DNA of 38,989 nucleotides from Clostridia bacterium (GCA_017960845.1 JAGCYK010000033.1:1-38989), one strand, 5' to 3'; counted from the first letter of the stretch, positions 7,029 to 36,090 are shown. Numbers and translations are program-made. Notes: generated from the letters alone by a model not told the origin.

Positions 7029-7400
7029 TTATTTAGGGCGCTTAGCGCCATACTTCGAGCGGGCTTGCATGCGTTTAGCCACACCGTTGGTGTCGAATGC
7101 ACCGCGGATAATGTGATACCTTACGCCTGGCAAATCCTTCACTCTGCCGCCACGAACTAGCACGACGCTGTGTTCCTGCAAGTTGTGTCCTATTCCGGGA
7201 ATATAAACAGTACCTTCCATCTTGTTTACAAGACGTACACGCGCAATCTTTCTGAGTGCGGAGTTAGGCTTCTTGGGGGTCGCCGTTTTAACGCTGAGAC
7301 AAACTCCGCGCTTTTGGGGACAAGAATCGAGAAGAGGGGAAACCGACTTCTTAACGCTAGCCTCACGGCCCTTACGAATTAACTGGTTTATAGTGGGCAT
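7029..7400 (-). CDS. rpsL: 30S ribosomal protein S12
   Basis: [13 protein letters not shown]...[10 protein letters not shown]...[15 protein letters not shown], 123 aa. Confidence 0.97.
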
Positions 7401-7494
7401 GTTACTCTACCTCCTTTGATAGTATTGCCGTCTTTGCCCGCCGGCTTGAAACCGATGCAAAGACAAACCTGTGCCTAAAAGCACAGGCTAGTTG

Positions 7495-7524
7495 ATTATA
7501 TTTAATCGTCAAGGGTATTGTCAA
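7495..7524 (-). promoter_or_regulatory. str-operon promoter (TTGACA, 18 nt spacer, TATAAT) ahead of a structured leader
   Basis: Minus strand: -35 TTGACA at 7519-7524 and -10 TATAAT at 7495-7500. The leader contains a perfect hairpin CCTGTGC/GCACAGG (7468-7487) and a longer GTCTTTGC...GCAAAGAC stem. Confidence 0.55.
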
Positions 7525-7595: not shown

Positions 7596-8339
7596 TTACG
7601 AAAATATAACATAAAACCTGCGTCGGCACCAAGGCCCAGTGCCACTAGCGCCGAAATGACTATAAATGTTTTGACTAGCGCCCAGATTATTCCAAAAAGT
7701 TAGTTTCACGGCAAGATGCATTTTTTCTCCGCTCCCAAGCAGCACCTCTCCGCCGTAAAGCATAACGGCCTCACGTCGCACCTGCCCTCCGGAGCCTTCT
7801 GCTAGAAAAACACCTTCCCCGTCGCTGTAATCAAAGGCGCTAGAAAAATCTGCGCTTGTTACAGAGTCGCCAGCCGTAGAGATTTGTTTGGCTAGAACTT
7901 TTATTTGCGTAGACAGCCAGTACTCATCTCCGCCAACTAAAATCGATGTTTCTTCTATCTCGCTTGGCCTATCTAAACCAATGGAAGAAATGCTAATCGT
8001 TCTATCCGACGCATTGAAAACCTCGAGAATTATGGTCTCGCTAGCCCCCGGCAGGTCAAAGAAAAACGGCACCGTTCCTACCTCTGTCATGTCTCCAAGC
8101 CCTACTACGCTATTATCTCTCATTGCGTAGCCACTAACAAGTATTTCCTTTTTTGGCGCGCTTAAATTGATTCCGCCGCCATGTGTTTGATGGTTTGACG
8201 AGAACCAGCCAAGACCACTGCCAAACAGCAAAAAGCCACTTAGCAGCATTGCGCAAAATAATGTCGCAATGGAGATTAAACTAAAAAGCGCGCCTTTAAA
8301 TAGTCCTTTCTCGCTACTCTTATCGTTGCCCTTTTTCAT
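7596..8339 (-). CDS. Small secreted/anchored protein with a TasA/SipW-type N-terminal motif (GLGWFSSN); possible TasA/camelysin-like subunit
   Basis: 247 aa. It has one N-terminal hydrophobic helix followed by GSGLGWFSSN. The mature part is beta-rich (LPGASETIILEVFNASDRTISISS, KLTFWNNLGASQN). It is the last gene of the cluster. Confidence 0.5.
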   Translation of the reverse strand: MKKGNDKSSEKGLFKGALFSLISIATLFCAMLLSGFLLFGSGLGWFSSNHQTHGGGINLSAPKKEILVSGYAMRDNSVVGLGDMTEVGTVPFFFDLPGASETIILEVFNASDRTISISSIGLDRPSEIEETSILVGGDEYWLSTQIKVLAKQISTAGDSVTSADFSSAFDYSDGEGVFLAEGSGGQVRREAVMLYGGEVLLGSGEKMHLAVKLTFWNNLGASQNIYSHFGASGTGPWCRRRFYVIFS

Positions 8340-8363
8340 TCCACTTTTCCCCTATTATTCACG

Positions 8364-11024
8364 CTAACTGCTATCATTTGTCCCGCCGGTCACATCGGTT
8401 ATATCATCGCCCATATTCGGACTTTGACGAATGATAGAAAGGTGAGCATTGTCCGTTCCTGCGAATATAACTTTGAATGTGCCCGTAGCATCCGTAACCG
8501 ACGTAATATAGCGCCTTACGTTAATTGTAAACTGGCCTATTTTAACGAACTCTTCGCCGTCTTTATCATTATTTCTTGTGTATAAAATTGTCAGCGAAGG
8601 AATATAGTAATTAAGCGACGTGTCTATATCAGAAGAATCTTTTACTGTCACTATTTTCCCGGAGAGATTATCGTAAACAAAATCTATTGACCCAAGCGTT
8701 GAGGTCGTGCTTGCCGCACTTGAGCCTATATCTAAGTAGCATAAATATGCGCCGTATCTACCCGAAACTGAGCCTAAAGCATACTCTCCATGATTAACCG
8801 GAATCTCGAAATAATACATTGCGTTCATAACAAGGCCGTTAGTGTCTCCGGGCGACTCTATCCAGTTTAAGTCGAATAGCTCTATGTAGCCAGCATATCC
8901 GTTTGACGCGTTTGGCGCATCTATTAGCCCACTTATTGAATACGTTCCATCTGCATATAGATAGATGTACGGCTTTTTCTCACTACTAGGGTCTCCATAA
9001 ATCTTTAAGATTCTCTTTATGTCCGTTATTTTGTTTTCTTCGTTTCTAAAAATCTTGCTCAAAGAAAAGAAACTGTCGTTTTCGTATCCGGCATTGTCAT
9101 AGTATGTTGCGGCAAAGAAATTCACATATCCTTTGGTTTTCAGGTTAAAATCTATACAGTCTTCTGGCAGTTCGTAGTTGTAATAAACCTGCCTATTTAC
9201 TGTCACCTTGTCTGCGACGATAAGGTGGTTTTTGCTTATTACCGCATCCATAAAGTGAAGTCCGTACACCTGCGTAGGATTAGCGTCTAACGTTTCATGG
9301 AGCTGGTCTCTTGAGGCGTCATATTTTTGCAGCGCTAGGTCAGCGGGTGCTTCTTTTGAAGAGTAGGCACTAAGCGCGCTAGAGACGAACGTATTAGAAG
9401 AATTATATGAGTCTGAAACTCTAGCCCAGCCTGATGACTCAAAGGTGCGCGTTAGCACCTCCAGTCTTCCCTGATTATTCCTATATGTGCTTACTCCGGA
9501 TAGTGAGTTGCCAAGTTTGTTCATAGGATAATATGCGACTCGAACGTCACCCCACGCCGACTGGTAGCTTGCATATGACCCGCCCACAACGTATCCGGTA
9601 TTTTTAGCGCTTGCCGCAAAAGGAGAAGTATCGTCTGCTACAAGCGGAAAATATGTGGCATAACCGGAAGCTTCGCTTGTAACAGCTTTTAAAACGATTT
9701 GCCGGTCTTTCGAGTTAATACCAAGCGTGCATCCCTGATCTTCTTCTAGAATGTTTAAAACGCTAGAGTCCGGGCTTATCTGGGTGCTTATTAGGTCAAG
9801 TGTTTCTGTTTTTCCTATCACGTAGGTGCTATAGTACTGATGCCCGTTAACCAAAGAGAGCGAAACTGTTGCGGCAGAAAAAGAGACAGGGGTTCGACTT
9901 AAAGCCATTGATGAGCCAACTGACCATGCTCCGCTAGCGTAGCGAAGATAATTTGATGAATATGTGCGATTTTGCAGATAATTATAGTTCGTCCACCGCC
10001 AGTTTTGCGTTGAGCCAAGCTCAAGCGAGTAAGTATACGGCCATGAAGACCTACTCACTGTTAAATATCTCGTAGTGCCAGAGCTCAAAGTAGAAACCGT
10101 AGTATTCGTTCCCGCCGTTATAATGGAAAACTCCCATAAAACGGCATCGTCAATATTAGAGTTAACAAAACTATTGCCCTGCATTGAAAGATAGTTTGAG
10201 CTCGATTCGATTGTATAATATGCCTTTGCCGTATTAACCATTTTCAAAGCGCCCCTATCTAAAACAAGCGAATATGTCGCGCCTGTTACATTCGCCGGGG
10301 TGCATATGAGCTGGCCGCCGTTAGTAGAAAAGACTGTTCCGTCCGCTTCGTTTGAGACAATTTTTAGGTTCGTCGACGACCTTTTGTTGTTCTCTTCGGC
10401 TTCAGCTCTTAAATAATAATTAATGCCGTTTTTAACAACATATATTTTTCCGCTTACGCTGTCATAAATCCATATAGTGGCTTCTGCCCCATCCGTTCCT
10501 GTACTTATGATTCCGTCCGATTCGTTTAAATAATAATTAGACGTGCCCTGGGTAACCGAAATAATACGGCCTTGTCCGCTTATGGTTCGATTCACTGTCC
10601 AGGCCCCGTTATAGATCAAATAATAGTCGTTGCCATTTTGTCTAAAAAACAGTCTGTTGTTTGTTCCGTCATAGGTAAAGACCGCGGCGTTCATTACGCT
10701 TGCGCTTAAAGAAATACCGCTGCTAGATGCTTGCAAATAATACACGCTAGCGCCCACATAGGTATAAATATGGTTTGACGCGTCCCAGTGCCACCGAGTC
10801 AAAGCGCTCGAGCCGTTAGATAGAAGCGTTCCTTCAGCGCATAGATAATTTTCGCCGTCTGTTATTTCTATATAATTAGTCTCCCTAACTACTCGCCACT
10901 GCTCATCGCATGTTAAATACCACTCTACTAGGTATTGGTCTTTAGCCGTAAATCTATTTCCGGTTTTTGTCCAAGTAGTAGAGGCGGATGCATCAAGAGT
11001 TAAAGCTCCGTTTGTAACATTCAA
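8364..11024 (-). CDS. C-terminal continuation of the giant adhesin-like protein; same frame as 11070..13232, with no signal peptide or SD of its own
   Basis: The track ORF starts at a TTG with no RBS. The 15 codons upstream (11025-11069) are open and in frame with the preceding ORF. The YL...W modules continue from the upstream ORF. The C-terminal half of about 500 aa has no domain I recognise and no LPXTG. Confidence 0.6.
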   Translation of the reverse strand: MNVTNGALTLDASASTTWTKTGNRFTAKDQYLVEWYLTCDEQWRVVRETNYIEITDGENYLCAEGTLLSNGSSALTRWHWDASNHIYTYVGASVYYLQASSSGISLSASVMNAAVFTYDGTNNRLFFRQNGNDYYLIYNGAWTVNRTISGQGRIISVTQGTSNYYLNESDGIISTGTDGAEATIWIYDSVSGKIYVVKNGINYYLRAEAEENNKRSSTNLKIVSNEADGTVFSTNGGQLICTPANVTGATYSLVLDRGALKMVNTAKAYYTIESSSNYLSMQGNSFVNSNIDDAVLWEFSIITAGTNTTVSTLSSGTTRYLTVSRSSWPYTYSLELGSTQNWRWTNYNYLQNRTYSSNYLRYASGAWSVGSSMALSRTPVSFSAATVSLSLVNGHQYYSTYVIGKTETLDLISTQISPDSSVLNILEEDQGCTLGINSKDRQIVLKAVTSEASGYATYFPLVADDTSPFAASAKNTGYVVGGSYASYQSAWGDVRVAYYPMNKLGNSLSGVSTYRNNQGRLEVLTRTFESSGWARVSDSYNSSNTFVSSALSAYSSKEAPADLALQKYDASRDQLHETLDANPTQVYGLHFMDAVISKNHLIVADKVTVNRQVYYNYELPEDCIDFNLKTKGYVNFFAATYYDNAGYENDSFFSLSKIFRNEENKITDIKRILKIYGDPSSEKKPYIYLYADGTYSISGLIDAPNASNGYAGYIELFDLNWIESPGDTNGLVMNAMYYFEIPVNHGEYALGSVSGRYGAYLCYLDIGSSAASTTSTLGSIDFVYDNLSGKIVTVKDSSDIDTSLNYYIPSLTILYTRNNDKDGEEFVKIGQFTINVRRYITSVTDATGTFKVIFAGTDNAHLSIIRQSPNMGDDITDVTGGTNDSS

Positions 11025-11768
11025 AAAGCGAATGCCCTGGCTTGTTGCTGTCTTTAACTCTCCGGTCGCTTAGAGCGCGAATAAAAGTGCATCGCCTAGG
11101 TCCGTTTTTGCTATGGCTGAATTAGTATAACCCAGGTACTGAGCTTCACTTGAAATTGTAAAAGCCGCGCTTAGAGGGCTCGCTCTCCACTTTCCGCCAA
11201 CAAGGCAAAGTTTCCAAGTATTGCCAGCTTGGTCAGTATGCGTTAGTGCGCTAGCCGACTTTGTCCATATAGTCAGCGGACTAGAGTCGAAAGAAAGATC
11301 CGTGCCGCGAGCGTTTAGATAATAAATGCTGCTGCCAATAAGCGTTGCTAAATATCCGCCCTCATGGCTAAACAGCTGCTCGCTCCCTGACGAAACGGAA
11401 AAGACGCTTCCTCCGCTCTCTCCTACATAATAAGTGCCGCTTCTACTTATACTAAATGCTGACTGGAATGGATAAACTCCCCAGCCGCTATTATATCTTA
11501 AGTACCAGTTCCTATTTCCATTTTGGTACGTTAATATGCTTCCGTTCCTAGCCCAAACGGTAGCTCCGGCTTTTGTATTGGTTAGAGATAGATTTACGCC
11601 CGAAGCAACTAAGTAATATGGCCTTATTTCATCGTCCGTTTCCACTCTTGCACTTAAGTGGCCATCTAGATCTAAAACCCAGACCGTTGCGTCCAGCTGA
11701 TTGGTTTCGTCAAGAATTCCATATCTATTTGCGTTTAGATAATGCGCTCCGTTTCCTATAGTAAATCC
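9900..11768 (-). repeat. Protein-level array of about 15-20 degenerate YL...W modules (ricin-B/beta-trefoil-like lectin subrepeats, inferred)
   Basis: Recurring 30-45 aa units, for example HYLNANRYGILDETNQLDATVW, YYLVASGVNLSLTNTKAGATVW, YYLNARGTDLSFDSSPLTIW, YYLNESDGIISTGTDGAEATIW and NYLSMQGNSFVNSNIDDAVLW. The array spans the in-frame stop. Confidence 0.5.
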
Positions 11769-13232
11769 GCTTTCGGTCTCGGTGGTATAAGTATATGTCG
11801 TAACTGTCTTTGGGAAATACACCTCAGAAGTTCCGTGGAAGAGATTGTACCTTTGAGAAGTGGTGGCACTTGACGAGTCTGCAAAGACAAGGCTTCCTCC
11901 GTCTTGTGACCTATACGTCCTAATTATCGCCCCGTCGCCCGGGGAAACATAATTTCCGTAAAACTGCTCAATTGAAATGGTAGGATTTCCTTCTCCGTCA
12001 AGAATATCCTCCCTTATTGTTATGGTTTCTGCGTTTACGTAAAGCTCTTCGCTGTTTTGTTTCGCTACCCCAAGGATTGTTTGCAATCTTGAGTGAAGTG
12101 CCAGCATATCAATCGAACCGCCCCACTCTTCTCCTGCTCCGGATATTAGCCCGGCTATCGTTGCTCCAGACCCAGAGCCTATAGTCGTTCCGCTCTTATC
12201 TGGATTAAGGTTGTAAACAAACCCTATTATTCCGGAGTCCGAATGGTAATTTGCTCCTGCGTGCTGAACGTCTATTGCGTCAGTTGTGGCAGCGCCGTTT
12301 TCTCCTTCGGTGTAATAGACGCTTATTTTCGTTATTTGAGAATATTCGATGTGGCCGGCTAGTATTCCTATATGGTGATCCTCTTCGTATTCGGTAAGAG
12401 CGTTTGCATCACTGCCCCAAATATGCGAGGCAAGCCGCTCCAGCACGCTCTGAGAGCGCACTTCCACTTTAATATCACATAGAAGCAGGTCTGTTATCGT
12501 AGAAACAACCCCTTCAAAATAATTTTCTTCATCAATGATTGTATAATCACTCTCGCTGCCCAGGTATCCCACTTTACCAAAAAGCCCAACATCAGGTTCG
12601 TTGTCTGTAGATGAAACCACAAAGTTCGCTATGATGGAAGAGTCGCTGCTCATGTCGTTATATTCCGCGTTTCCTGTTTTCGGGGCGCCGCCGACATATC
12701 CAATGAAAGGATACCTTTCCGTACCTATTGGGTTTATAACCTTTCCGGCCCCATCAATGCTTACCGGATTGCCGAAAGTATCACAAACCAAAAAGTACGG
12801 CATGGACTCTCCGCCGTTATACTCTCCTTCGCTATAATTCTTTGAAATATATTTCTCGTAAAAATATCCGGAACGCTGGAGTGCATATAGATTCATCATA
12901 TGCCTAGGATACGAAATTATATACGGATTCGCTTTTGTTCCCCAGTCCGTCGTAGGATCAAAAAGAACTTCCTCTGTGGTGTTTTCTTCGTTCTCTCTTC
13001 CGCTTAGATAGCTAATGTTTCCCGAATACCCGCCGCTGTTCGGGTTTAACCGCTCAAATAATAAGTTTATTCTCATACCTATGTGTGCTATACGCCCTGC
13101 GTCGCCATCCGAAGTATATACTCTCGGCAAACTGCTATAGTACGCATGTGTTGCAGCCGATAAAATGCCGGCCAGCACGCCTAGCATAATAAAAAGAGTA
13201 ATAAATAATACTTTGTTTCTTCCTTTAAACAT
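11070..13232 (-). CDS. N-terminal part of the giant adhesin-like surface protein (SipW-type signal motif, GLUG/beta-helix-like region, start of the lectin-like repeats)
   Basis: 720 aa. RBS AAAGAGG lies upstream. The N-terminus is MFKGRNKVLFITLFIMLGVLAGILSAATHAYYSS. It has NPIGTERYPFIGY...DVGLFGKVG, HIGILAGHI and SGIIGFVYN (GLUG-like G-h-h-G motifs typical of beta-helix adhesins). It ends at TAA 11070-11072. Confidence 0.65.
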   Translation of the reverse strand: MFKGRNKVLFITLFIMLGVLAGILSAATHAYYSSLPRVYTSDGDAGRIAHIGMRINLLFERLNPNSGGYSGNISYLSGRENEENTTEEVLFDPTTDWGTKANPYIISYPRHMMNLYALQRSGYFYEKYISKNYSEGEYNGGESMPYFLVCDTFGNPVSIDGAGKVINPIGTERYPFIGYVGGAPKTGNAEYNDMSSDSSIIANFVVSSTDNEPDVGLFGKVGYLGSESDYTIIDEENYFEGVVSTITDLLLCDIKVEVRSQSVLERLASHIWGSDANALTEYEEDHHIGILAGHIEYSQITKISVYYTEGENGAATTDAIDVQHAGANYHSDSGIIGFVYNLNPDKSGTTIGSGSGATIAGLISGAGEEWGGSIDMLALHSRLQTILGVAKQNSEELYVNAETITIREDILDGEGNPTISIEQFYGNYVSPGDGAIIRTYRSQDGGSLVFADSSSATTSQRYNLFHGTSEVYFPKTVTTYTYTTETESGFTIGNGAHYLNANRYGILDETNQLDATVWVLDLDGHLSARVETDDEIRPYYLVASGVNLSLTNTKAGATVWARNGSILTYQNGNRNWYLRYNSGWGVYPFQSAFSISRSGTYYVGESGGSVFSVSSGSEQLFSHEGGYLATLIGSSIYYLNARGTDLSFDSSPLTIWTKSASALTHTDQAGNTWKLCLVGGKWRASPLSAAFTISSEAQYLGYTNSAIAKTDLGDALLFAL

Positions 13233-13256
13233 TTTCTACCTCTTTTTACATATCGG

Positions 13257-14120
13257 TTAAACGTATATTCCGTAAAACTCTATTTCAAAAACGAGCCCCA
13301 AAAGGAGCTGACACGGCATAAACCTAGTGATCGTTTCGGTAATAGCAATGCATCCTTCTAGGTCCGGCGCTATTCGAACAAAAAGATAATATGGCGAATC
13401 CTTTTCTCCGCTAAAAACATCCGCAAACTCATCTCCGTTTTGTAGCGAGACGTATCCGCTTTGGTTTGATGTGTTAAATAGGCTTAAAATGCTTTCTTCC
13501 GCGGTGGACGGAGCGAAGCCTAGCGCGCTAACCGCACACTCTATTTGAATAAGGTCAGAAAAGAGCGAAAAGTCTATTCCAACTCCGTTTGATCTAAAAT
13601 GCTCTACCCCTTCCGCATCAAAAAATCTTATATTCTCCTCAATTAGCGAAAATCTTGCCCTAGCCCTTCGCCCATGACGCGCGATATCAGTTAAATCAAA
13701 GCGCAGCAAAAAATAGTTATCGCTATTAAGCGACAAAAGATTATCAATGGTTCCTAAGTGAAGCGAAGTGAAAGTTAGTTTCTCACGGAGCCCTGCGTTG
13801 TTTTTCCCTGACGAGCCTACCGGAAGGTCTGCGTCAACCGTTGATTTTGCTACCACGTAGGTGCTTGAACCAGATGCGACTGCCCGCCACTGGCCGTTGG
13901 TTTTATCTGTTGTTTCTCCGGAAGTTTCTCCGGCTAGGTCATAAACCCAGGCGCTCATGTTTGGATACGTAGCTCCGCCCGTGCTTAAGTCCGGGTTCTT
14001 TTCACCGTGCCAGGAACTACTAAACCAAGCGTACGTAAAAACTGACGCCATAATTATCGTAGATAAAAATAACGCCAAGAATGCTGTTATAACGTTCTTT
14101 GTGTTCCTGCTGTCAATCAT
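13257..14120 (-). CDS. Secreted/anchored protein with a TasA/SipW-type N-terminal motif (TYAWFSSS); possible TasA/camelysin-like subunit
   Basis: The start is preferred at ATG 14120, which has GGAG 5 nt upstream. The N-terminus is MIDSRNTKNVITAFLALFLSTIIMASVFTYAWFSSS. The mature part has LTFTSLHLGTIDNLLSLNSDNYFLLRFDL. 287 aa. Confidence 0.5.
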   Translation of the reverse strand: MIDSRNTKNVITAFLALFLSTIIMASVFTYAWFSSSWHGEKNPDLSTGGATYPNMSAWVYDLAGETSGETTDKTNGQWRAVASGSSTYVVAKSTVDADLPVGSSGKNNAGLREKLTFTSLHLGTIDNLLSLNSDNYFLLRFDLTDIARHGRRARARFSLIEENIRFFDAEGVEHFRSNGVGIDFSLFSDLIQIECAVSALGFAPSTAEESILSLFNTSNQSGYVSLQNGDEFADVFSGEKDSPYYLFVRIAPDLEGCIAITETITRFMPCQLLLGLVFEIEFYGIYV

Positions 14121-14169
14121 CGTGTCTCCATTCCCCTTTCTCTTTATGTGGAGGCATTTATATTGATGT

Positions 14170-14207
14170 AAAACAAAAGCCAGTTGCATTAATATTAAGC
14201 AGCTGGC
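14170..14207 (-). terminator. Terminator-like hairpin between the ABC gene and the first TasA-like gene
   Basis: The minus strand reads GCCAGCTGC-11 nt loop-GCAACTGGC (8 of 9 bp) followed by TTTTGTTTT. Confidence 0.45.
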
Positions 14208-14281
14208 TACCTTGAGTTTAAGACAAGGTTGTTTGTGTGTAGCCGTTTAGCAAAGGTGCCAAAGGGTATTTTGTTAGAAGC

Positions 14282-14310
14282 ATTTTATCATTAATATGGG
14301 TTTCTGTCAA
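14282..14310 (-). promoter_or_regulatory. Promoter-like element (TTGACA, 17 nt spacer, TAAAAT) just downstream of the ABC stop codon
   Basis: Minus strand: -35 at 14305-14310 and -10 at 14282-14287. It lies upstream of the hairpin at 14170-14207. Confidence 0.4.
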
Positions 14311-14340
14311 CCGAAGAAACAACCTAATGCTAGTGAAGCC

Positions 14341-17154
14341 TTACTCCGTTCTAAGTGCAACAACAGGGTCTTGGCGAGCCGCGGCCGATGCAGGGATAAG
14401 CCCTGAAAGAAGCGTTAGACCAACTGAGATTGCTATCATGATGCCTGCTGTCGGCAATGTTAGGTTTGCTATCGTATAGATTCCGAAATTAAGTCCGAGC
14501 GCTATGTTGAATATAAAGCAAATGACGTATGTTGCTAGCACGCCTATTATGCCGGCAATAAGCCCTATTATAAAGGTTTCGGCATTGAATAGATTCTTTA
14601 CGTCTCTTTTCCTTCCGCCCATTGCCCTTATAATACCTATTTCTTTCGTTCTTTCAACAACGGAAACATAAGTAATAATTCCTATCATTACGGTCGATAC
14701 GACCAAAGAAACGGATGTGAATGCCACAAGTCCTATTGTGACTATCATGATAAGCATATCTACAAGGTCCATAACAAGACCCAGCGTGTCGGTATAATTT
14801 ATTTTATCTGCCGGTTCATCATGAGTTTCATTCCATTTGTCAAGATAGTGAAGTAGTTCTGTTTTCTTTTCAAAATCCACAGAATAGAATCTTATGCTTG
14901 ACGGCACATTATTTCCTCCGAGAGCGCTTAGCGTAACAACCTTATTTGATGAACTGTAATATGTACTTACTAGCATATCTAATAGTCCGTCTAATTGAGC
15001 TTCCGGCGTCGGGCCAAAACGCATAAGCATAGTTCTTATTAAATTCTTAAAAGTTTCTTTAGATAAAGTTGATGCCCACGTGCTTATGACATCCGATGAA
15101 CTTGCCGCTCCGGATGTTGAGGAAGATACATTAGCACCAAACTCTTCGTTGTTTTTGTCCGCGCCTTGCTTATTGTATACTATGGTTCCACCTTCTTCGA
15201 CGTCGTAATAGTAAGTGTAGCCGTATTTAATATTGTTTGCCTGGTCATTATTTCTCATAGCATATTTAACGACTTCGGACCTAGAGGCCTCATTTGACTC
15301 AAGGCTCAAAGCATATTGAGTTAGCGCCTCGCTATAATAAAGGCCGGCAGAAAGCGAGCCGTATAAAATGGAGTCTTTTGGCTTTAAAACGCAGGCAATT
15401 TTCATGGGAACCGCTTTTGATGCGTCTAAATCGTCCGAATACGTCTGATAGCGAAAGGCATTAGGATTGCCTGAAGTATCGGTGTCTGATACTTTATAAA
15501 CCTCACTGTTAGGATAATACGCAAAAGCCTTTGAGCCTTCTCCGCAAAATGCCGTGTAATCAAACTCAAGTGGGATTACGGGATCAGAAGGTCGGTAGAA
15601 AGAATTGTCCTCAACTAAGCTGTAAGCATAGTTTAAAAATGCGCGCTGTGAAATATATCCGAACTGAGCAAGCAAGATATCGTTAATCTCAGAATCTTTG
15701 CTTAGAACGAGCACCATATTTTCTTTTTCGTTTTCAGGGTACTCTCCTGCTAAAACCTCATATTGACGAAGCACGTACTCTTTATTGTTCGGAAGCTCGG
15801 AAAATGTTCCAACCGTGTTTATAATGGGAGCAAGTTGCGAATAATCTTCCGTTTTTTCAAGAACTGTTCCATACATTGAGCGGATTCCGGTAATGGAAAT
15901 ATTTACATCCTGAACGCCCTCTATTCCATAAGAAAAGTCCGTATAGATGTTATGTGCAAAATTGATTCCGTAAGATTTTTTTACTACTTCTACGCAGCCT
16001 TCTGGAAGGTCGTCTAAATAGTCAACGTATTCCTGCGTGATTTCGTTTGTAGAAATGGAGTTGTTAAGCTTAGCGACTGTTTCTATGATTGTATTTACAT
16101 AGACCTTATCCGCCATTCGCCCTTTGTTTTCATCTTTATTCCGGTATTGGTCGGCTAGAGACGAAAGCGCCGAGAAATCAAAGGCTGTTTGAGAAACAGT
16201 AACCGGAAAACCTGACAGCATATCGCTTTGCATGCTGTCTATATAATTTCTTATTCCGGCAGAAAAAGCTAGGACTATAGCTACGCCTATTATTCCTATA
16301 GACCCGGCAAAGCCAACCATAATGGTTCTGCCTTTTTTTGCAAGAAGGTTTCTCCAGGAAAGAGCAAAAGCGGTCCAAAAGCCCATCTTGGTCTTTCTTC
16401 TTCCTTTTCTTTTTTCCTGGTCAATCGTCTTTTCGTCTAATACAGCGCCTTCTCTTTCTTTTGTCTCTTCTTCGCTATCAAATGGATTTGAGTCTCCGGT
16501 AATCTTACCGTCAAGAAGGTTGATAATTCTATTTGAGTATTCTTCAGCGAGCTCCGGGTTGTGCGTAACCATTATTACGAGTTTTTCTCCGGCAATCTCG
16601 CGCATTAGATTCATTATTTGAACACTTGTCTTTGTGTCGAGCGCTCCGGTAGGCTCGTCAGCAAGAAGAATATCCGGATCGTTTACAAGAGCTCGCGCAA
16701 TAGCAACTCTTTGGCACTGTCCGCCGGAGAGCTGATTCGGGCGCTTATATAGTTGATCTCCAAGTCCTACTTTAATAAGCGCGGTTTTAGCCTTCTCGCG
16801 ACGCTGCTCAAGACTTAGTCCGGCAATGGTAAGAGCCAGTTCAACGTTTCCGAGAACTGTTTGGTGCGGAATGAGGTTGTAGCTTTGGAAAATAAAACCA
16901 ATTCTATGGTTTCTGTATACGTCCCAGTCCCTATCGTTATATTTTTTTGTGGACCGTCCCTCAATTACTAAATCTCCGCTAGTATACTTGTCTAGACCGC
17001 CTATAATATTAAGAAGAGTTGTTTTTCCGCAACCTGAAGGACCGAGAATTGACACAAATTCGTTCTTGCGAAAATTTAACGAAATCCCTCTTAATGCGTG
17101 AACGTCTCCGGATGCTATTTTATATGTTTTGTCTATGTTAACTAACTTAAGCAT
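14341..17154 (-). CDS. Fused ABC ATPase / FtsX-family permease (MacB-type, type VII ABC) with a large extracytoplasmic domain
   Basis: 937 aa. It has Walker [10 protein letters not shown], signature LSGGQ and Walker [11 protein letters not shown]1 is around aa 265-300, followed by a soluble insert of about 500 aa. The C-terminal FtsX module has three TM helices ([14 protein letters not shown]...). Confidence 0.85.
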
Positions 17155-17176: not shown

Positions 17177-17206
17177 ATTATAATTAATGGTTTTTTCCTT
17201 TGTCAA
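17177..17206 (-). promoter_or_regulatory. Promoter of the ABC gene (TTGACA, 18 nt spacer, TATAAT)
   Basis: Minus strand: -35 at 17201-17206 and -10 at 17177-17182, about 22 nt upstream of the ATG at 17154. Confidence 0.5.
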
Positions 17207-29988: not shown

Positions 29989-30194
29989 TAAATATCTTCA
30001 CGCGCTTAACACATTCTATGCACTTAACTTGCTTTGTTTTCACATAATCAACACTATTTGACTCGCATTGCCATTATTTTTCCACAAAGTGTCCCTTTTT
30101 AGTTCTATTTCTTCAAATAAATATGTGCGCAATGCGCGCGTTTGTGCTATTATGGAATAGAAATACGTTCGCTAGTGGCGCAAAGGAGGATCTT

Positions 30195-31901
30195 ATGCAA
30201 AGAATTAAAAACTTCTACAAAGTCATTACTTCTATTCTTCTTTCTGTATTGTTTCTTTTCATTATAGCCTTCTCTTCTTGCTCTATAACAATAGACGGGC
30301 GCACTTACTTTAATTTAAGCAACATAGAGTATGAAACTTTTGATGATACAAAACTGGTCGATACTCTTGATGCGGCCGAGGCGTTATCCAAAAAACTTGC
30401 CACGATGACCGAAGAGGACGCGAATGGTGCGACCGGAATTGCGCAAACAACTCTTTTTATAAGCTTTTTAAACACGCTGACCTCTGAGCTTAACAGTTTT
30501 GCAAATGCTTTCGTGATAGCGCGAATAACATATTTCAAAGATGCCGCTGACATGGAAATGGCAAACACTTATTCTTCTTTATTGGAAAAATATACATCTT
30601 ATTACAACCGATATCTTTCTATTCTCGGCAATATCGTAGACTCGCCGTTTGGAACGCTGCTTTCAAAAGAAGATATAGATTTTATAAATAAAAAGGCTGC
30701 TCTATCTAACAACGAACAGTTTGTTGCCAAGCAAAAAGAATTGAACCAGCTAGCAAACGAATATATTCGTGCTTACAACGGAAAAGCCTATAATACCTAT
30801 ACGCAGGCGGATGCGCTTGACGTTGCCGCCAGATTAATACAGTTCGCTAAAGTTGCGAACGAATCGATTGCCGAAACGAGTTATACTTCGTATGCTGAAT
30901 ATGCTTATGCTGAAGTTTTTGAACGTGGTTTTTCTCCTCAGCAGGCCTCCGTTATGACAAGCTACGTAAAAGAATATCTTTCGGATCTTTATTATATGTT
31001 GCCGAACATTAATGAACAAGAGGAATTGATAGCGCTTTCTTCTATTAACACAAAGATAGACAGGGCTTACTCGGCAAAAAAACAAACCGTTAATCTACTC
31101 TTTAAAGACAAGATAAAAGAATATGCAAACGAGATTGGCGGCACTATGCCAAAGGCTTTTGATTACTTAAATGCCTGCGAATTGTATCAGGTGGGAGACA
31201 AGGCCACCTCTTATAACGGAGCACACACATCGATGCTTCCGTTATATAACTCCCCCTATATTTATGCCAAATTAAAAAACAATTATTCTGATTTAACTAC
31301 TTTTATTCACGAGTTCGGCCACTTTAACGCCTATTATGCCGACGCCCCGAATACAAGCAATTACGATATTGCGGAAATACATTCTCAGGGAAATGAATTC
31401 CTCTTTATGGATGTTTATGAAAAAATGGGCGGGTCGACACTTAAAAAGGGAATGCTGAAAGCCAGCTTAAAATCAAACATTGTTTATGCTTTGAATATGG
31501 GCTGCTTAATGGATGAACTTCAGCAATATGTCTATGAAAATGCGGACACGCTTACTCCCCAAGACGTTTGCAACAAGCAGAATCAATTACTGGAAGAGTA
31601 CTCACTGACAGCAAAAGTAATTGGGGATCCCTCCTTCAGATATTTTTGGGCGGCTATTCCCCACACCTTTGAAGATCCGTTTTATTATATAAGTTATGCC
31701 GCTTCTCTTATCCCCGCACTTGAACTTTTTGAACTCTCCGAATCCGGCCATAGAGCTGATGCTATCGCAGCATACAACTATATTGTTAGTTCAGACGAGA
31801 AGGACTATGGCGCTCTATTTAGAGGCGCCGGACTCAGTGGACCTTTTTCCGAGGCGGTATATCCTAACATTAGAGACACCCTTCTCCTCCGTACGGTCTA
31901 A
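30195..31901 (+). CDS. Lipoprotein-anchored zinc metallopeptidase (HEFGH; M3B/oligoendopeptidase-F-like)
   Basis: The ATG at 30195 is preceded by AAAGGAGG. The N-terminus MQRIKNFYKVITSILLSVLFLFIIAFSSC looks like a lipoprotein signal. The zinc motif is FIHEFGHFNAYY. 568 aa. Confidence 0.6.
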   Translation: MQRIKNFYKVITSILLSVLFLFIIAFSSCSITIDGRTYFNLSNIEYETFDDTKLVDTLDAAEALSKKLATMTEEDANGATGIAQTTLFISFLNTLTSELNSFANAFVIARITYFKDAADMEMANTYSSLLEKYTSYYNRYLSILGNIVDSPFGTLLSKEDIDFINKKAALSNNEQFVAKQKELNQLANEYIRAYNGKAYNTYTQADALDVAARLIQFAKVANESIAETSYTSYAEYAYAEVFERGFSPQQASVMTSYVKEYLSDLYYMLPNINEQEELIALSSINTKIDRAYSAKKQTVNLLFKDKIKEYANEIGGTMPKAFDYLNACELYQVGDKATSYNGAHTSMLPLYNSPYIYAKLKNNYSDLTTFIHEFGHFNAYYADAPNTSNYDIAEIHSQGNEFLFMDVYEKMGGSTLKKGMLKASLKSNIVYALNMGCLMDELQQYVYENADTLTPQDVCNKQNQLLEEYSLTAKVIGDPSFRYFWAAIPHTFEDPFYYISYAASLIPALELFELSESGHRADAIAAYNYIVSSDEKDYGALFRGAGLSGPFSEAVYPNIRDTLLLRTV

Positions 31902-34415: not shown

Positions 34416-34504
34416 GGAGAGGTATCGAAGTGGTCACAACGAGGCGGTCTTGAAAACCGTTTGGGGGCAACTCCACGCAGGTTCGAATCCTGTCCTCTCC
34501 GCCA
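34416..34504 (+). tRNA. tRNA-Ser (anticodon UGA), CCA encoded
   Basis: The acceptor stem is GGAGAGG/CCTCTCC and the anticodon loop is CTTGAAA. It has a long variable arm and the T-loop GGTTCGAATCC. A promoter (TTGACT 34373-34378 / TATTAT 34397-34402) lies upstream and a hairpin plus T-tract downstream (34509-34552). Confidence 0.9.
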
Positions 34505-34664
34505 AAATCACCCAACTTGAGCTTTAATGGCTTAAACTGGGTGTTTTCTTTATTCTCCACGCTTTTTGTTTTTTCTTCTCGTGGAACTAATGCCGATTCA
34601 ATGATTTACTGCTTTAACAATAAAAACAATTCTTTTTTACCGCTTGGTTTTTTTAAAAAAATAG

Positions 34665-34693
34665 TTGCTTATCAATTTTTTATTTGTTATAAT
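34665..34693 (+). promoter_or_regulatory. Promoter of the tRNA Met-Glu-Val cluster (TTGCTT, 17 nt spacer, TATAAT)
   Basis: -35 at 34665-34670 and -10 at 34688-34693. Confidence 0.5.
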
Positions 34694-34732
34694 GACAAGG
34701 CTTTCGGAAAAAAGGAAGATTCTAATTCCTGC

Positions 34733-34809
34733 GGCGGCGTAGCTCAGTTGGCTAGAGTACTCGGTTCATACCCGATTGGTCGGCGGTTCGAATCCACCCG
34801 CCGCTACCA
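34733..34809 (+). tRNA. tRNA with anticodon CAU (elongator Met or Ile2/lysidine type; not an initiator)
   Basis: It has TAGCTCAGTTGGCTAGAGT, the anticodon loop TTCATAC, GGTTCGAATCC and an encoded CCA. The anticodon stem lacks the initiator GGG/CCC. It has a G1-U72 pair and one T-stem mismatch. Confidence 0.8.
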
Positions 34810-34812
34810 CGA

Positions 34813-34887
34813 GTCACCATGGTCTAATGGTTAGGACACTAGCCTTTCACGCTGGCAATACGGGTTCGAATCCCGTTGGTGATACCA
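34813..34887 (+). tRNA. tRNA-Glu (anticodon UUC), CCA encoded
   Basis: GTCACCATGGTCTAATGGTTAGGACACTAGCCTTTCACGCTGG...GGTTCGAATCCCGT...ACCA. Confidence 0.88.
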
Positions 34888-34890
34888 TTT

Positions 34891-34966
34891 GGAAGTTTAG
34901 CTCAGTTGGGAGAGCATCTGCCCTACAAGCAGAGGGTCATAGGTTCGAGCCCTATAACTTCCACCA
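34891..34966 (+). tRNA. tRNA-Val (anticodon UAC) with C at position 33
   Basis: GGAAGTTTAGCTCAGTTGGGAGAGCATCTGC-CCTACAA-GCAGAGGGTCATAGGTTCGAGCCCTATAACTTCCACCA, with a perfect 5-bp anticodon stem. Confidence 0.85.
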
Positions 34967-35076: not shown

Positions 35077-36090
35077 TTATGCTGCCTGCTTGCTAGTGAT
35101 TAACGTAAGATATCCGTTCGTTTCACTTCCTTCATCCGCACCTTTAATGCCGCTGTTACCTAGGTTTATATCCCCAGTAACAACATTGCTTGAATTAACG
35201 GCGGCCGTACCTACTCTTCCGAGTTTAGCTATAGAGCCGGTAACTACCCCGCCAATCATCGAGTTCATCGTGGCTGTCTCGTCCGTTGTTCCCTCGTCAA
35301 TTGCATGCGCAAGTGCTTTAATGATTACCTCTGACATCTGTGAGTCTTTGCCGTTAATATTAAATGCTTTTGACGCTGTGCTGAGCACCCCTTCGTTTGT
35401 TGCGGTTAAAGTCATTTGGCTGACAACATACAAGTTGCTTGGAATGATGTTTGAAATAAAGCCCGGAACGTCTTTAAATAGTTCTTCCTTGATTCCAGCA
35501 ATGTTAAAGCTTGCAACAACTTTTAATGTAACGCTATCCTGCTCTACCTCATCAACTGTTATTTTATCGTTATAAAGCGATACTTCGTTTATAACTATTT
35601 TGAATTGGCCGAGCGGTCCAAGATCGCTGTTCTCTCTTTCTTTATCCTGAGTTTCTTTTAGCGCCTGGTTAAAGATGTATCCTAGTGTATGGTCGTCATA
35701 TCTTAAAAGATATTCCTGATCATAGAGTATAGGTCCGCCCTCGGTTGAAAGCAAATCTGCATATGAAATTACTGTTTCCCCATCAACCACAGAGCTGATT
35801 GCTGAGTTACGTAAGTTGTTTTCTGCTTTCGGAGCCTCTGTTTCATCATCGAATCCGTTTGTAACAATGTCTTCTTCTTTTGGTTCTTTGAACACATCCA
35901 TTAGGTCTGTGAATAGAGTCGCAAAGTTTTTGTCCGCTAATCCCAGTTCCTCAAGCGTTCCAAAGCCTAAATCTACTCCGCCAAGCCCGAACGTATTCGG
36001 CGTGCAGGCGAAGGCTAAAATAGCAACAATTCCGACCACAACCGCCAAAGAAACGAGGGAAGAAATTATCATTTTTAATAAGCAGCCCAT
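35077..36090 (-). CDS. Membrane-anchored extracytoplasmic protein, function unknown
   Basis: 337 aa with a single N-terminal helix (IISSLVSLAVVVGIVAILAFAC) followed by an acidic soluble region. I recognise no motif. Confidence 0.5.
   Translation of the reverse strand: MGCLLKMIISSLVSLAVVVGIVAILAFACTPNTFGLGGVDLGFGTLEELGLADKNFATLFTDLMDVFKEPKEEDIVTNGFDDETEAPKAENNLRNSAISSVVDGETVISYADLLSTEGGPILYDQEYLLRYDDHTLGYIFNQALKETQDKERENSDLGPLGQFKIVINEVSLYNDKITVDEVEQDSVTLKVVASFNIAGIKEELFKDVPGFISNIIPSNLYVVSQMTLTATNEGVLSTASKAFNINGKDSQMSEVIIKALAHAIDEGTTDETATMNSMIGGVVTGSIAKLGRVGTAAVNSSNVVTGDINLGNSGIKGADEGSETNGYLTLITSKQAA

Follow-up and report, generated by a model that had tools for sequence, protein, structure and literature searches.

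A conserved gene module of Clostridia that probably encodes exported cell-surface proteins with a SipW-class signal

We analyzed a 38,989-nucleotide (nt) stretch of DNA from a Clostridia bacterium (GCA_017960845.1 JAGCYK010000033.1:1-38989), referred to below as the window. Open reading frame (ORF) calling placed four co-directional genes on its minus strand at 7596-17154, which in the order of transcription are a fused ATP-binding cassette (ABC)/FtsX gene and three genes that we labeled B, C and D. Our analysis indicates that B-C-D are probably a conserved three-gene operon of exported cell-surface proteins with a SipW-class signal, and that this operon is separate from the ABC gene. An initial annotation of the window had merged all four genes into a single TasA-like fiber or adhesin system. 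Its description of three consecutive minus-strand genes, each coding for an N-terminal helix followed by a common motif, was borne out, and the motif coordinates proved exact for the seven-residue core. The three genes and their motifs are located as follows (aa, amino acids).

13257-14120, minus strand: gene B, 287 aa if started at the ATG at 14120 (14189 being the start of the longest ORF)
8364-13232, minus strand: gene C, whole reading, 1622 aa upon readthrough of one stop codon
11070-13232, minus strand: 5' part of gene C, 720 codons plus TAA, with the signal helix, the motif, the N-terminal domain and the start of the repeats
8364-11069, minus strand: 3' part of gene C, in the frame of the 5' part, with an 886-aa ORF from the TTG at 11024; remaining repeats and C-terminal domain
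11070-11072, minus strand: in-frame TAA, codon 721 of gene C, a nonsense mutation or sequence error
7596-8339, minus strand: gene D, 247 aa, an ORF of a small unannotated family
14016-14036, minus strand: motif TYAWFSS of B
13131-13151, minus strand: motif THAYYSS of C
8196-8216, minus strand: motif GLGWFSS of D

In each of the three proteins B, C and D, the only hydrophobic segment is N-terminal, spans about 19-22 residues and is directly followed by the motif [AG][WY][FY]SS. As a strict pattern we defined a hydrophobic run followed by [AG][WY][FY], and as a control we used 1393 ORFs from 1.1 Mb of unrelated loci. Only one of these 1393 ORFs matched the pattern; therefore, the motif is not a chance occurrence. 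Within the window the strict pattern matches B and D. C escapes it solely through a histidine that breaks its hydrophobic run, and a looser scan of the whole window found the motif in B, C and D only. The motif is also retained among homologs. Tryptophan at +1 (W32) is invariant in the aligned B-family representatives (34/34), the aromatic pair is present in every C and D homolog, and the same motif occurs in 11 homologs of C, 6 of D and 9 of the pilin-like proteins described below. The initial annotation had expected orthologs to keep (W/Y)(F/Y)SS. This holds for the aromatic residues, whereas 'SS' is not conserved, and the conserved core is better written as [AG][WY][FYL].

The positions before the aromatic pair are informative as well. 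All 34 B-family representatives have A, G or S at -1 and T, S, A, V or C at -3. Small residues at -3 and -1 right before the aromatic pair fit cleavage by signal peptidase I at this point. Together with a charged N-terminus, a long h-region and the aromatic-F motif, they give B, C and D the layout of SipW-cognate signals. In TasA, the fiber chain 8aur_A starts at precursor residue 28, straight after TWA (the TasA sequence used here agrees with 8aur_A and 5of1_A). Cleavage at the analogous point would occur ahead of W32 in B, Y31 in C and W45 in D, so that the predicted cleavage sites lie between A31 and W32 in B, after A30 in C and after G44 in D. With the signal removed, hhalign detects no profile-profile similarity among the B, D and pilin-like families and TasA, meaning that the motif is a common signal and not a trace of paralogy. 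Paralogy of B and D, whether with each other or with the pilin-like proteins, was considered and rejected (BLASTP; hhalign with trimmed alignments). As for the class III signal of type IV pilins (G|F-T-L-x-E, cut ahead of the hydrophobic helix), inspection revealed no G-F/M-T/S-L-x-E before the helix of these proteins; their conserved motif comes after it. At the level of sequence, the view that the common N-terminal motif behaves as a SipW-class export/processing signal is supported by its conservation in three otherwise unrelated families and by the -3/-1 rule.

Other post-helix motifs were seen in Bacilli-type loci fetched for the ABC gene. Large proteins encoded there carry GYSAFTTNLxIxGT, GYAVLSSNLTIDGT or GYAAYNATxNIYG after the helix (L061 10102-14035, L054 19214-20503, L021 17055-18740 and L024 16482-18965; 4-8 kb from the ABC gene), and these may be another variant of the SipW signal class.

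The second line of evidence is gene order in relatives. C lies directly after B in all 13 related loci with sequence downstream of B (L068, L069, L070, L071, L073, L074, L075, L076, L077, L078, L079, L080 and L081). Six loci also have a D-family gene beside C or B: it follows C in the window, L073, L075, L079 and L081 and precedes B in L077. One of these, L081, is a stand-alone B-C-D with an intact C of 1770 aa. Moreover, an archaeal-type (SipW-like) signal peptidase I is encoded downstream of C in four distant relatives: L075, L076 (two), L078 (two) and L080. In L076 and L078 it is the gene right after C, and in L075 and L080 it lies within a few kilobases downstream of C. Five of the six peptidases (those of L075, L076 and L078) score 60-104 bits on TIGR02228, the cut-off being 51.85, and partially match the Bacillus SipW model; that of L080 was seen only with a local hidden Markov model built from the other five. 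The B-C module was also observed in a rumen-type contig (L074 96-4425), where its neighbors code for a serine recombinase, a group II intron reverse transcriptase and, from the other strand, a pilin-like protein, surroundings that hint at an ability of the module to sit in mobile or rearranged DNA.

Some relatives have a fuller locus. It codes for several small proteins of 236-324 aa, here called pilin-like, in which the signal helix is followed by (T)(Y/F)AW(F) and the C-terminal region carries (W/Y)(L/I)EGxDxxC. One of them (L075 17753-18643, motif TFAWFTSN) reaches 20.3 bits on TIGR04088, above the cut-off of 19. Genes for EAL or GGDEF proteins flank the locus in L076, L078 and L079. Downstream of C, the fuller loci repeatedly encode a DUF2357 protein, an EAL protein, a second S26/SipW-like peptidase and a membrane protein of about 525 aa that belongs to no family. 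What looks like a conserved larger gene set spans L076 4642-20574, L078 521-13991 and L080 9742-13610. Since pilin-like proteins, SipW-like peptidases and enzymes of cyclic di-GMP (c-di-GMP) turnover come together here, the system looks c-di-GMP-associated. Tentatively, and on balance doubtfully, one might go further and group B-C-D with the DUF2357 protein, the roughly 525-aa membrane protein, the one or two dedicated SipW-type peptidases and the small (T)(Y/F)AW(F) proteins as a hitherto unrecognized class of Gram-positive surface filament of gut and rumen Clostridia. Its novel-fold subunits would be released by the archaeal-type signal peptidase and assembled without a sortase or a type IV machine, C would serve as a giant tip or lateral adhesin, and c-di-GMP would exert control.

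Several observations weigh against exported B-C-D proteins with a SipW-class signal. Full-length B, C and D do not match TIGR04088 (cut-off 19 bits), and neither do their N-terminal 62-72 residues at E<=10. The earlier assignment to the SipW-cognate class stands as far as layout and the -3/-1 rule are concerned, but not by the family profile. A SipW-type peptidase is encoded neither within the 39-kb window, in agreement with the initial annotation, nor on the contigs, both of them short, of L069 and L081, the closest relatives. AlphaFold2 runs the motif of B on as part of the membrane helix, which would suit an uncleaved anchor too. Furthermore, C is broken by a stop codon in the window strain and matches no known adhesin domain; no terminator was predicted in the gap between the ABC gene and B, leaving read-through transcription from ABC into B possible; and adhesion, surface location and polymerization of B-C-D are properties that we infer.

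The first three of these points are also what one would see if the helices were left uncleaved. B, C and D would then be type II signal-anchor proteins, in which the interface aromatic motif packs the three helices into a complex displaying C. A segment of about 19-22 residues has transmembrane length, and in the AlphaFold2 model of B residues 4-37 form one continuous helix with a predicted local distance difference test (pLDDT) value of 95-97 over most of the hydrophobic segment. However, all 34 B-family sequences combine A/G/S at -1 with a small -3 residue, a signature of signal peptidase I for which an anchor has no need. In addition, four relatives have one or two dedicated SipW-type peptidases within the locus, and the similarly long helix of TasA is cut at the equivalent position. 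We consider uncleaved anchors unlikely.

Gene C deserves separate consideration. The initial annotation had presented it as a giant protein of about 1600 aa. Readthrough gives 1622 aa and the homologs are indeed continuous, but in the window there are two ORFs, of 720 and 886 aa, because C is split by the in-frame TAA at 11070-11072 (codon 721). The homologs of C range from 1156 to 1770 aa; the 5' part of C is 32% identical to a continuous 1479-aa protein of L075, and the repeats of C align across the TAA. The near-identical (99%) strain L068 has GAA at codon 721, and its C has no stop through at least 959 codons. Given the GAA in L068 and the continuous homologs, the TAA is either a strain-specific nonsense change or a sequence error. 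Stop-codon reassignment was rejected as a cause: the sister strain has GAA, and EF-G, S7 and S12 are full-length under the standard bacterial code. In the bases inspected directly ahead of the TTG at 11024 there is no Shine-Dalgarno-like GGAGG, so the 3' part of C is probably not translated. An independent C homolog, that of L080, is split by an in-frame TAG (7050-7052) within the repeat region. Possibly, giant repeat-rich adhesin genes are recurrently inactivated, or an assembly artefact is involved.

These features raise the question of whether the module of the window genome is a non-functional remnant, detached from peptidase and pilin-like genes, with its main gene inactivated and without a current role. 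Besides the TAA in place of GAA and the lack of GGAGG before TTG 11024, the in-frame stop of the L080 homolog would be in line with decay, as would the window itself, where neither a SipW-type peptidase nor pilin-like genes were found. On the other hand, B and D are intact, with 98-99% identical copies in other samples, and C of L068 is open through at least the 959 codons mentioned. Stand-alone B-C-D with an intact 1770-aa C recurs in L081, which indicates that this layout is itself a conserved form, and the stop may stem from a mistake in consensus calling or assembly of the metagenome-derived sequence. A remnant therefore seems possible, though not probable.

Homologs of C consist of a strongly conserved N-terminal domain (approximately residues 35-460, with many invariant residues), variable repeats and a conserved C-terminal domain. 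For C, Pfam yields no significant family (a lone E-value of 0.16 is at chance level), NCBIfam no family and PDB no meaningful match by sequence. The lectin-like character given to C in the initial annotation found no backing, as neither C nor its repeats matched any family. A resemblance of the N-terminal domain to GLUG-type beta-helices likewise received no Pfam support at E<=1. A phage tail-fiber origin of B, C and D was rejected, there being no PHROGs match.

B belongs to a family of 58 representatives at E<=1e-3 (exhaustive phmmer), mostly 250-330 aa long. Word-seeded searches with B, D and the D alignment had returned only near-identical copies and the D homolog of L075, and it was the exhaustive search that revealed the B family; a metagenome scan with the B alignment gave two loci only. 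Conserved motifs of the family are YAW(F/L), SLHLGTVDNL, YYLYxRxxPDL and YMPC. B has no Pfam match at E<=1 and none in NCBIfam, and 34 B-family members have no Pfam match at E<=0.1. The AlphaFold2 model of B (pLDDT 83.5; predicted template-modeling score, pTM, 0.76) pairs a long helix at the N-terminus with a domain of mixed alpha/beta structure, at variance with the beta-rich protein initially proposed. A Foldseek search of this model against PDB yielded nothing below E=0.066. PDB sequence searches with the B profile, the C profile and one pilin-like protein gave nothing meaningful, matches to uL18 and antibodies being chance.

D also represents a family of its own, with invariant W45 and N49, the strand motif PGxS...N and, toward the C-terminus, SQNxY..FG..C(K/R)R(R/K). 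It has no Pfam match at E<=1 and no NCBIfam family. Its AlphaFold2 model is mostly beta and, being built from five input sequences only, weak (pLDDT 65, pTM 0.60). The best Foldseek matches of the model are family 3 carbohydrate-binding modules (CBM3; E about 1e-3, template-modeling (TM) score <=0.37), which suggests a beta-sandwich-like protein of uncertain affinity. Each small family has a conserved cysteine: in B it is part of YMPC (residues 268-270, window ~13311-13319), and in D it is residue 238 (window ~7626-7628) in C(K/R)R(R/K) near the C-terminus. Together with EGxDxDC in most pilin-like proteins, these cysteines may be cross-linking or metal-binding sites.

The starting proposal for B and D was a very different one. 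It held that both are major and minor fiber subunits of the TasA/camelysin fold, polymerizing by donor-strand exchange, with C as decoration and a MacB-type ABC protein driving export or assembly. The genes are adjacent and co-directional, the signal motif resembles TWA|AF of TasA, B and D are of TasA-like size, and D combines the PGxS...N strand motif with a mostly beta model. However, Peptidase_M73 (PF12389) matches neither B nor D nor B-family members, and no other family match was obtained for B, D and 33 B-family members. In hhalign comparisons of B and D with the verified TasA the probability was 0.1-0.2%. For the B model, whose best Foldseek E-value is the 0.066 given above, the TasA fiber 8aur_A appeared at rank 41 (E=0.46, TM score 0.22); for the weaker D model, best matched by CBM3, no TasA chain was present within the top 50. 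As judged by sequence and predicted fold, B is not detectably TasA-like, and the idea of TasA/camelysin-like subunits is not supported.

The ABC part of that proposal fares no better. The gene and a site in the gap that separates it from B are the following.

14341-17154, minus strand: ABC/FtsX fusion gene, 937 aa, MacB architecture (Pfam plus NCBIfam, topology); a neighbor judged to lie outside the module
14282-14310, minus strand: promoter-like site in the ABC-B gap, TTGACA, 17-nt spacer and TG-TAAAAT; by consensus match only, a candidate own promoter of B-C-D

The fused 937-aa protein is as first described. Pfam identifies ABC_tran and FtsX, the first transmembrane segment is at 278-296, the second to fourth are at 801-923, and the extracytoplasmic domain between the first and second comprises about 504 aa (about 500 had been estimated), in keeping with the layout of a nucleotide-binding domain fused to an FtsX permease. 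ABC_tran, FtsX and topology are those of MacB-type proteins. The extracytoplasmic domain of E. coli MacB is about 200 aa, so the window protein differs in the size of this domain, for which there is no Pfam match. It also misses the MacB equivalog cut-off, with a partial match of 274 bits against 966. A genome scan found full-length relatives (38-48% identity) in 57 loci of metagenome-assembled genomes of gut Firmicutes, with varying neighbors, and B- or C-like genes were downstream of the ABC homolog in none of the 57. Conversely, no ABC/FtsX gene adjoins B in L069, L073, L074, L075, L076, L077, L078, L079, L080 or L081. The gene upstream of B is instead rsmF (L069, L081), a PNP gene (L073), a helix-turn-helix regulator (L079), a D-like gene (L077), or a pilin-like gene or Wzy_C (L075, L076, L078). 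The ABC-B arrangement is repeated only in the near-identical strain L068. Thus, of the proposed synteny of four genes, B-C(-D) persists in relatives and the ABC gene does not. On the grounds of this missing synteny we place the ABC gene outside the B-C-D module; its protein is a widespread stand-alone transporter. The link to ABC is largely refuted, and we regard the combined TasA and MacB scheme as highly improbable.

The ABC-B gap is 150-220 nt long. The promoter-like site in it matches the consensus at 11 of 12 positions and has an extended -10, and Rfam detected neither a riboswitch nor any other RNA ahead of B. Two further promoter-like sites of sigma-70 type, with perfect 12/12 matches, are present on the minus strand at 17177-17206, upstream of the ABC gene, and at 7495-7524, upstream of rpsL, with a stem-loop (7466-7489) between the latter site and rpsL. 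Downstream of B-C-D are rpsL, rpsG, fusA and tuf, and upstream there are housekeeping genes. Elsewhere, the window has a cluster of four tRNA genes (34416-34963) and two sizeable ORFs without a Pfam match, at 30123-31901 (plus strand, 592 aa) and 35077-36090 (minus strand, 337 aa).

Returning to an exported B-C-D module with a SipW-class signal, we envisage the following course of events. An archaeal-type signal peptidase I encoded elsewhere in the genome would cut B, C and D at the signal, and the mature proteins would start with WF or YY. C, a giant adhesin-like protein, would be the functional core. B and D would act as small partner subunits with folds of their own, most likely anchoring, assembling or adapting C at the surface of the cell. 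Elsewhere among gut Clostridia, the fuller locus may constitute a c-di-GMP-associated surface fiber or adhesin apparatus; the window has a stand-alone B-C-D copy in which a nonsense codon cuts C short.

The main known examples of SipW-dependent secretion are the TasA-type biofilm fibers of Bacillus and BsaA of C. perfringens. Our results suggest that, in uncultured Clostridia of the gut and rumen, the logic of SipW signal and peptidase also serves unrelated, unannotated families, among them a conserved giant adhesin-like protein. Should the fuller loci build a surface fiber, abundant and poorly known gut anaerobes would have a new adhesion apparatus, and four or more new protein families would gain a testable role. 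There are practical consequences for annotation as well: the [AG][WY][FY] signal variant is missed by TIGR04088, the MacB-like neighbor ought to be kept out of the system, and the C gene of this strain should be treated as interrupted. We found no description of the B, C and D families in the literature.

Among known systems, tapA-sipW-tasA of Bacillus subtilis is the closest. It shares with the present module a charged N-terminus, a long hydrophobic helix and T-aromatic-A followed by aromatic-F. In both cases several secreted proteins use one signal, and the loci of relatives carry a dedicated archaeal-type signal peptidase I. However, B, C, D and the pilin-like proteins are not similar to TasA in sequence, profile or predicted fold, and the +4 Asp of the FSD/FND motif is absent from the B-C-D signal. 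A giant protein of 1156-1770 aa as the core is a further difference, as are the failure of the window proteins on TIGR04088 and a window without sipW.

A scan against the NCBIfam families for SipW-exported proteins gave no match, and we know of no B-, C- or D-like genes in the BsaA locus of C. perfringens. As far as it can be compared by published description, the sipW-bsaA system of Clostridium perfringens, in which BsaA is a matrix polymer, ranks second-closest after tapA-sipW-tasA, being likewise a clostridial, SipW-linked secreted system of matrix or pilin type (PMC7395162; bioRxiv 10.1101/2024.11.04.621531). Pam pili resemble the fuller loci in their Sec-signal pilins, an operon of several small paralogous subunits and no envelope-spanning machine, and Pam pilins have been reported as exclusive to Candidate Phyla Radiation bacteria (bioRxiv 10.64898/2026.03.03.709456). 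Unlike Pam pili, the related loci contain no PapD-like chaperone genes among those called here. The Pam pilin model NF058581 matches none of B, C and D, and of 10 pilin-like members one, P0087 (L078 2207-2917), reaches 16.4 bits on this C-domain model, against a cut-off of 55. Set beside these systems, what is new is the B, C and D families and their link to SipW.

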